Below are positions 51,546-52,099 of a DNA stretch of 64,000 nt, in pieces. The notes under the pieces were generated by a model. The model saw only the letters and a program-made list of their open reading frames with translations, made no database searches and was not told the origin of the DNA. The position numbers and the translations under genes are program-made. The stretch comes from an uncultured Peptostreptococcaceae bacterium (lineage in GTDB: Bacteria > Bacillota > Clostridia > Peptostreptococcales > Peptostreptococcaceae): NCBI GenBank assembly GCA_944383455.1, contig CALWPP010000003.1, positions 51,652 through 115,651 on the forward strand. Reading direction: 5' to 3'. Each line of letters begins with the position of its first letter. The first letter of the stretch is position 1.

Positions 51546-51573
51546 AAAATACCTAGCATATGCTAGGTATTTT
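51546..51573. terminator. Perfect 28-nt palindromic terminator hairpin
   Basis: AAAATACCTAGCATATGCTAGGTATTTT, 35 nt downstream of the selenoprotein gene stop. Confidence 0.75.
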
Positions 51574-51607: not shown

Positions 51608-51934
51608 TTAGTGTCCGCAACCAGAGCATCCTCCGCCACATCCACCACTTTCATTATTATCTAGTTTACCTGGAACTATTTTAAATCCAAATCCAGTATC
51701 TTCAATAGTTATATCTCCAAATTTTTCATACTCTTCTTTATCCATTATAAAGTGAAGTTCTTCTACTGTGCATTCAGTGTCAGTTTCTCTTTGCTCATCC
51801 AGAGCAATTCCAAATGATGGACCACCTCATCCAACTCCAGCAAAATGTATTCTTATATTTTGTGGTGCTTGAGGATTACCTTTTAAAGCATTTTTTAAGG
51901 TTTCAATAGCTTTTTCTGGTAAATTAACTATCAT
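51608..51934 (-). CDS. HesB/IscA-like protein with in-frame UGA (predicted selenocysteine) and a Cys/Gly-rich tail
   Basis: Manual translation: MIVNLPEKAIETLKNALKGNPQAPQNIRIHFAGVG-U-GGPSFGIALDEQRETDTECTVEELHFIMDKEEYEKFGDITIEDTGFGFKIVPGKLDNNESGGCGGGCSGCGH. TGA at 51829..51827 falls where HesB/IscA proteins carry the first conserved Cys. AAGGAA RBS. Confidence 0.7.
51795..51817 (-). promoter_or_regulatory. Candidate bacterial SECIS hairpin
   Basis: UCAUUUGGA-AUUGC-UCUGGAUGA: a 9-bp stem (3 G-U pairs) starting 10 nt after the UGA, with G and U in the apical loop. Confidence 0.5.
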
Positions 51935-52099
51935 ATCTTTTTCATTCCTTTCTATATATTTGTTTTAATTATACCAATTCATTATGGTTAATAAACATTA
52001 TTATTTTACTCAATGCAATTTTTTTAATTCTTATTTATATAAAACTTAATACCAAGGCGAAATATTTATATTTTTCGCCTAGTATAAGCAGTTATTACT

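Follow-up and report, generated by a model that had tools for sequence, protein, structure and literature searches.

We found that the minus strand of the window (the whole 64,000-nucleotide stretch of uncultured Peptostreptococcaceae DNA analysed here) very probably carries a monocistronic HesB/IscA-like selenoprotein gene of 108 residues, in which UGA36 would be read as selenocysteine (Sec) through a hairpin inside the reading frame. We put the probability of this reading at about 0.93. A Sec-decoding gene at this position had been proposed from the letters of the sequence. Re-reading the minus strand confirmed one frame of 108 codons from an ATG at 51934..51932 to a TAA at 51610..51608, with one TGA at 51829..51827. 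In translation, this frame has the context ...IRIHFAGVG-U-GGPSFGIALDE... around the TGA and, as claimed, the Cys/Gly C-terminal tail GGCGGGCSGCGH. The open reading frame (ORF) track is blank at 51608-51934 because translation table 11 cuts the frame into ORFs of 35 and 45 aa.

The flanking signals were then read on the same strand (Table 1). The ribosome-binding site claimed earlier fits the sequence GAAAGGAA at 51952..51945. The terminator at 51573..51546 folds with -16.2 kcal/mol (z = -4.5), and none of 200 shuffled sequences folded equally well. A consensus promoter and terminator scan, in which both hexamers were required, listed neither the extended -10 site nor the terminator. The promoter-like site and the terminator bound the unit, and the gene therefore looks monocistronic. 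Upstream lies a gene for an ECF S-component, and the downstream genes code for an alpha/beta SASP and a PdaC/DUF3298 protein; none of these neighbours is informative on function, and in the neighbourhood examined the HesB-like gene lies outside any isc or suf operon. Neighbourhood clustering of 80 loci found no functionally informative conserved neighbour. A TrmB-like methyltransferase is located downstream in 43 of these loci; it gives no functional clue because it is missing from the window.

Table 1 Features of the predicted selenoprotein gene in the window.
Feature	Position	Strand	Details
HesB/IscA-like selenoprotein CDS (predicted)	51608..51934	minus	108 codons including Sec36; TAA 51610..51608
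In-frame TGA as putative selenocysteine, U36, motif U-G-G-P	51827..51829	minus	codon column and IscA alignment
Shine-Dalgarno-like GAAAGGAA	51945..51952	minus	11 nt before ATG; read from sequence
Extended -10 promoter-like TGgTATAAT	51968..51976	minus	~34 nt 5' of ATG; assigned by eye; good -35 absent
Intrinsic terminator	51546..51573	minus	12-bp stem, 4-nt loop, then U-rich run; direct folding
Bacterial SECIS hairpin UUGCUC-UGGAU-GAGCAA (predicted)	51791..51807	minus	6-bp stem; 5-nt loop 51801..51797, starts 25 nt after UGA
Earlier-proposed hairpin	51795..51817	minus	can be drawn; unsupported as SECIS

The original prediction had proposed looking for selA, selB, selC and selD elsewhere in the genome. 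All are present, in one cluster on a single contig (C7:79907-86560) with the order selD(Sec)-selA-selB, then tRNA-Sec, in a host genome of 1.64 Mb (26% GC, 27 contigs, 88.6% complete). Going by the nearest homologues of the gene, this genome falls within Peptostreptococcaceae, close to Romboutsia. The profile scores for selD (394 bits), selA (623 bits), selB (360 bits) and tRNA-Sec (69.8 bits) are all above the curated cut-offs, and the anticodon of the tRNA-Sec is tca (UCA). The selD gene itself carries one in-frame TGA, with a hairpin (GGCCAGA-GGU-UUUGGCU) 20 nt 3' of it, while selA and selB have no internal TGA.

In a small genome of low GC content, TGA might have been reassigned, to Trp under code 4 or to Gly under code 25, in which case residue 36 would be Trp or Gly. 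The size (1.64 Mb) and GC content (26%) of this genome would suit such a change, nine homologues in databases have W at the Sec position, and Gly would be compatible with the GVG-x-GG context. Against this, ORFs of at least 200 aa, counted from stop to stop under table 11, already total 450,170 aa, or ~82% of the 1.64 Mb, and TGA is the terminator of 48 of the 1132 ORFs in this length class. The absence of TGA from selA and selB also speaks against reassignment, and genome-wide only four in-frame TGAs have both a two-sided coding signal and a hairpin. The sole alternative to TGA among homologues is a Cys codon, and never a Trp or Gly codon. TGA is an ordinary stop elsewhere in the genome and is not reassigned, and we consider a Trp or Gly residue at this position hardly conceivable.

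To read the codon at the Sec position in related genes, we collected 29 relatives of ~105 aa in a protein search, then fetched 80 genomic loci and read the codons directly. At the protein level, the column contained only C or W in the 29 relatives. Across 87 homologous genes the codons were TGA (50), TGT (31) and TGC (6), with no other codon, which bears out the correspondence of Sec with Cys that had been expected. All 50 TGA homologues keep at least 60 open codons after the TGA. The TGA form was found in both same-genus genomes and in many same-family genomes, and the gene, in its Sec or Cys form, in 22 of 24 same-family genomes. No Cys paralogue was found in the genome of the window, which has the Sec form only.

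These counts also bear on whether the gene is broken. A Cys codon (TGT or TGC) could have mutated to TGA, leaving a stop after 35 residues and a decaying remnant downstream; TGT needs one base change for this, and under table 11 the locus amounts to two short ORFs only. However, fifty independent homologues share TGA at exactly the same column and remain open beyond it. The dN/dS of the window gene against its nearest relatives is 0.13-0.27 past the TGA and SECIS, with a similar value in the upstream part, and purifying selection acts on either side of the TGA. An RNA hairpin specific to Sec genes is conserved as well, and the genome has the full Sec machinery. Because all 50 TGA genes stay open and the downstream dN/dS is low, we exclude a pseudogene and regard this origin as highly improbable. 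The Sec machinery, the column holding TGA and Cys codons only, and the alignment with the first Cys of IscA are all favourable to the earlier view of a genuine Sec-decoding HesB/IscA-like gene.

We constructed a maximum-likelihood tree and found that the window gene lies inside an all-Sec clade (support 100/99). The Sec/Cys label requires ~5 changes on this tree, at least 3 of which are forced by well-supported branches. Several other loci contain paralogues of both kinds. In L016, L017, L026 and L027 (Romboutsia timonensis, Faecalimicrobium dakarense and relatives), tandem Cys and Sec paralogues are located on the same strand, 400-650 nt apart. In Peptacetobacter sp. AB800 (L045:2594-2647), a Sec paralogue sits beside a Cys paralogue and is nested in an otherwise all-Cys clade. 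The family SECIS is missing from it, and GGUCUA-GCUU-UAGAUC can form instead, 4 nt further upstream; this suggests that Cys was converted to Sec independently here and that a new SECIS evolved. Some Cys-codon copies (L050, L054, L055, L026/L027 and L077) retain partial SECIS-like sequence, such as UUGCUU-UAGAU-GAGCAA and GCUCUGGAUGAG, and these remnants may be fossils of Sec-to-Cys conversion. Such a conversion has been reported for a HesB-like protein of Desulfitobacterium hafniense (PMC1794560). The Sec gene of a metagenome-assembled genome labelled Halarcobacter (Campylobacterota; L069, a 1.9-kb contig) groups with genes of Clostridium sediminicola and C. grantii (support 92/94); the cause is either horizontal transfer or the mis-binning of a contig from Clostridium.

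The one part of the original prediction that had to be reassigned is the identity of the SECIS element. It had been placed at a hairpin UCAUUUGGA-AUUGC-UCUGGAUGA (51817..51795), which can indeed be drawn, with 9 bp and -6.7 kcal/mol, but is not supported as the SECIS. In the ensemble of the window RNA its pair probability is 0.004, compared with 0.72-0.99 for an overlapping hairpin, UUGCUC-UGGAU-GAGCAA (51807..51791), which has an energy of -7.6 kcal/mol in the same RNA. The two hairpins behave differently in the homologues. For the hairpin with the AUUGC loop, 86.9% of cells are paired in Sec genes and 78.4% in Cys-codon homologues, whereas for the hairpin with the UGGAU loop the values are 97.4% and 55.9%. 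Two-sided pair changes among Sec genes number zero in the former and one in the latter (U-A to A-U, in 4 sequences). This is the only covarying pair in the UGGAU-loop stem and the remaining signal is conservation; in three of these four sequences the compensatory change replaces Gln by Leu. G is absent from the first two loop positions of AUUGC and present in those of UGGAU.

When Sec genes and Cys genes were aligned as nucleotides, the codons gave the same picture. The stretch GCU CUG GAU GAG CAA is near-invariant in Sec genes, synonymous sites included, whereas in the Cys genes the codons for the same A-L-D-E peptide vary freely. For Leu, 44 of 48 Sec genes use CUG, compared with 1 of 35 Cys genes, and genome-wide CUG makes up only 0.5% of Leu codons; this rare codon appears in the window gene because the UGGAU-loop hairpin forces it. 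Likewise, 47 of 48 Sec genes but 10 of 35 Cys genes encode Glu with GAG, and the next residue is Gln (CAA) in 43 of 48 Sec genes while it is variable in Cys genes. The minimum free energy (MFE) of the hairpin is -7.3 +/- 0.9 kcal/mol in Sec genes and -1.4 +/- 1.8 kcal/mol in Cys genes.

Sec could still be inserted with the AUUGC-loop hairpin as the SECIS, or through a switch between the two overlapping hairpins. The earlier-proposed hairpin starts 10 nt after the UGA, a spacing similar to that of E. coli fdhF, its nine pairs give -6.7 kcal/mol, and it is somewhat stabler in Sec genes (mean -4.6, compared with -2.3 in Cys genes). These points are set against its very low pair probability and against wobble positions that break two of its pairs, uncompensated, in one third to one half of Sec genes. 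It also pairs nearly equally well in genes that need no SECIS, and its complementarity therefore derives from peptide coding. We judge a role for it very unlikely; going by the alignments, it arises from the coding of S-F-G...L-D-E. These comparisons strongly support the hairpin at 51807..51791, which is conserved and specific to Sec genes, as the functional SECIS.

Published criteria for bacterial SECIS (bSECIS) elements are a loop of 3-9 nt, an upper stem of 4-16 bp, G in the first two loop positions, a UGA-to-loop distance of 16-37 nt and an MFE of at most -7.5 kcal/mol (PMC13188914). The loop (5 nt, UGGAU), stem (6 bp), G and spacing (25 nt) of the UGGAU-loop hairpin fall within these bounds, and its MFE borders the cut-off, at -7.6 kcal/mol in context and -6.8 kcal/mol for the isolated 17-mer. 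Rfam was scanned at the gathering threshold and at a permissive E-value; both scans gave noise and no match to a SECIS family. During translation, this hairpin, with its loop 25 nt past the UGA, would recruit SelB-GTP-Sec-tRNA(Sec), and UGA36 would be decoded as selenocysteine in place of termination. We infer the binding of SelB, with indirect support from a conservation restricted to Sec genes, and SelB-dependent recoding at UGA36 via a hairpin in the ORF is strongly supported by the comparison of genes.

To obtain the predicted selenoproteome, we scanned the whole genome with a six-frame coding score on either side of in-frame TGA codons combined with the bSECIS criteria. An initial version of the scan, with a codon score trained against same-strand off-frames only, returned 408 hits swamped by antisense ORFs and was rejected. 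The six-frame scan gave 43 candidates, four of them with a qualifying hairpin; the other 39 were upstream-ORF artefacts or adjacent same-frame genes. The four predicted selenoproteins are SelD, the HesB-like protein of the window, an Spx/ArsC-like protein and a CxxC-U-CxxC mini-protein. All four hairpin loops contain GG and lie 20-25 nt from the UGA (20-23 nt in the other three genes), as expected if one SelB reads them all.

The latter two genes are located on the minus strand of contig C2 (reverse-complement offsets 120942-121104 and 160359-160737), each with a GG-loop hairpin 20-23 nt after the UGA. The dual-CxxC protein has 53 aa (...CPKC...SUGS...CTEC...) and scores 24 bits with NF041197 (CxxC_Se_CxxC), below the cut-off of 40. 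The other is an Spx/MgsR/ArsC-family protein of 126 aa (TIGR01617, 107.6 bits) in which Sec replaces the first active-site Cys. Family searches of the 88.6%-complete genome found neither GrdA nor PrdB, and the GRDB family search gave a 177-aa stop-free match only. Another frame on the C2 minus strand (reverse-complement offsets 112021-112540) has good coding signal on both sides of a TGA (...NIWLF-TGA-GGILVDNF...) and lacks a SECIS-like hairpin. Judged by eye, its product is similar to RibD_C/dihydrofolate reductase, with the TGA in a Gly-rich motif, and the probable explanation is a nonsense mutation, a pseudogene or an error of sequencing.

The assignment to the HesB-like family was made with profiles and structure models. 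HesB-like proteins had been invoked as a known prokaryotic selenoprotein family with Sec on the conserved Cys, and this agrees with the literature, in which the family is established with the motif UxGP and the model TIGR01911 in anaerobes including Clostridia (PMC1794560, PMC13188914). A member in Methanococcus maripaludis has been confirmed as a selenoprotein by 75Se labelling (PMC11097638). The best-matching models for the window protein were NF038090 (IscA_HesB_Se; 59.5 bits, cut-off 85) and TIGR01911 (HesB_rel_seleno; 56.9 bits, cut-off 66.35), and both cut-offs were missed. Close relatives, whether Sec or Cys, are likewise under both, with 43-63 bits across the Peptostreptococcaceae clade, whereas two more distant homologues, P0028 and P0029, clear the NF038090 cut-off and a third, P0030, clears that of TIGR01911. 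This places the clade between two curated subfamilies.

With the family profile we recovered the solved A-type carriers 2apn, 1nwb and 1s98/1r94. In 2apn, 1nwb and 1s98, the first ligand Cys (GCSG) lies in the Sec column, and their C-terminal CGCG is matched by the first Cys of the tail. An AlphaFold model of the protein has a pLDDT of 85.8, with tail residues 96-108 below 50. Its top Foldseek matches, at probability 1.00, are IscA with a [2Fe-2S] cluster (1x0g), IscA (1r94) and SufA (2d2a); DsrR is also among the fold matches. On this model the product has the fold of the A-type Fe-S carriers (IscA/SufA/ErpA), with Sec36 at the position of the first cluster-ligand Cys and the flexible tail C99-GGG-C103-SG-C106 standing in for the C-terminal Cys-Gly-Cys of IscA. 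The protein, probably as a dimer, might hold iron or an Fe-S cluster through Sec36 and the tail cysteines and pass it on. The original prediction had linked the Cys-rich tail to Fe-S or metal handling. The IscA fold and the alignment of the tail are consistent with this, while the role itself stays a suggestion, and we propose an Fe-S or metal carrier only tentatively, at a little under even odds.

A possible but less likely function is that of a selenol/thiol redox protein or a sulfur/selenium-relay protein that carries no Fe-S cluster. Sec36 could form a selenenylsulfide with a tail Cys, for example in sulfur/selenium trafficking or metal detoxification, a version we hold to be similarly doubtful. 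The tail spacing CxxxCxxC is unlike the CGC of IscA, and DsrR, found among the fold matches, is an IscA-fold protein that is not known to carry Fe-S. Redox enzymes account for most prokaryotic selenoproteins (PMC13188914), the HesB-like family has been described as unclear in function, and a disruption mutant of M. maripaludis was unimpaired in nitrogen fixation (PMC11097638). On the other side, the closest relatives in both sequence and fold are bona fide A-type carriers whose ligand positions align with those of the window protein, and a carrier role remains our preferred reading.

The Peptostreptococcaceae proteins with the pattern U/C-x62-CxxxCxxC could also be regarded as a distinct, uncurated subfamily because they fail both NCBIfam selenoprotein cut-offs. 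In such a subfamily, Sec together with the tri-Cys tail would form an Fe-S or metal site with selenium as a ligand, for whose chemistry the Cys form is no full replacement, and the window protein would be one reason for retention of the Sec trait. The streamlined 1.64-Mb genome appears to maintain its entire Sec apparatus for no more than four predicted selenoproteins, and it has no Cys paralogue of the window gene. We consider the reading as a distinct subfamily rather improbable.

The practical outcome is an annotation correction and not a discovery. Standard gene callers miss genes of this type or write UGA as Trp under table 4, as in nine catalogue entries. These entries (P0002, P0003, P0004, P0012, P0014, P0017, P0018, P0021 and P0023) have Trp at the Sec position, evidently because UGA was translated under table 4, a systematic mis-annotation of the HesB-like family. 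Current curated HMM cut-offs leave the Peptostreptococcaceae clade unnamed, and the family-specific SECIS UUGCUC-UGGAU-GAGCAA could be used to find and annotate such genes across Peptostreptococcaceae. The evidence supports the earlier interpretation at its core; the identity of the SECIS alone was wrong.

We compared the window gene and its product with three known systems. Relative to the consensus bacterial SECIS (bSECISearch model, PMC13188914), the hairpin is alike in its 6-bp upper stem, its UGGAU loop with G at position 2 followed by another G, and its distance of 25 nt; its energy, ~-7.6 kcal/mol in context, borders the cut-off. It differs in being short, without an evident conserved lower stem or an Rfam match. 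It also lies wholly inside the conserved peptide motif I-A-L-D-E-Q, and for this reason RNA and protein constraints coincide.

With IscA/SufA/ErpA (1x0g, 1r94, 1s98, 2d2a, 2apn and 1nwb), the protein shares the fold (Foldseek probability 1.00, TM 0.56-0.67), a Sec column that corresponds to the column of the first ligand Cys, and a disordered tail bearing a C-terminal Cys cluster. In contrast, the sequences are 14-23% identical, Sec stands where the carriers have Cys, the tail reads CxxxCxxC and not CGC, and an isc/suf operon is absent. A-type carriers are recognized by a central Cys and a C-terminal C-G-C; the window protein has Sec in the centre and the tail C99-GGG-C103-SG-C106, and at best it would work like an A-type carrier without being a canonical member.

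The likeness to HesB-like selenoproteins (TIGR01911, NF038090) is closer. The features by which these are recognized were all found in the window gene, namely the UxGP motif, a single Sec at the first conserved Cys, Cys-codon homologues and the IscA/HesB fold, together with a predicted bacterial SECIS inside the ORF and an anaerobic Firmicute host. The differences are the scores of the Peptostreptococcaceae clade below both curated cut-offs and the conserved GGCGGGCSGCGH tail. HesB-like selenoproteins in anaerobic Firmicutes have been known for two decades, since the mid-2000s. The window gene is a further member of this long-known family, which is common in the lineage, and biologically it is nothing unexpected.
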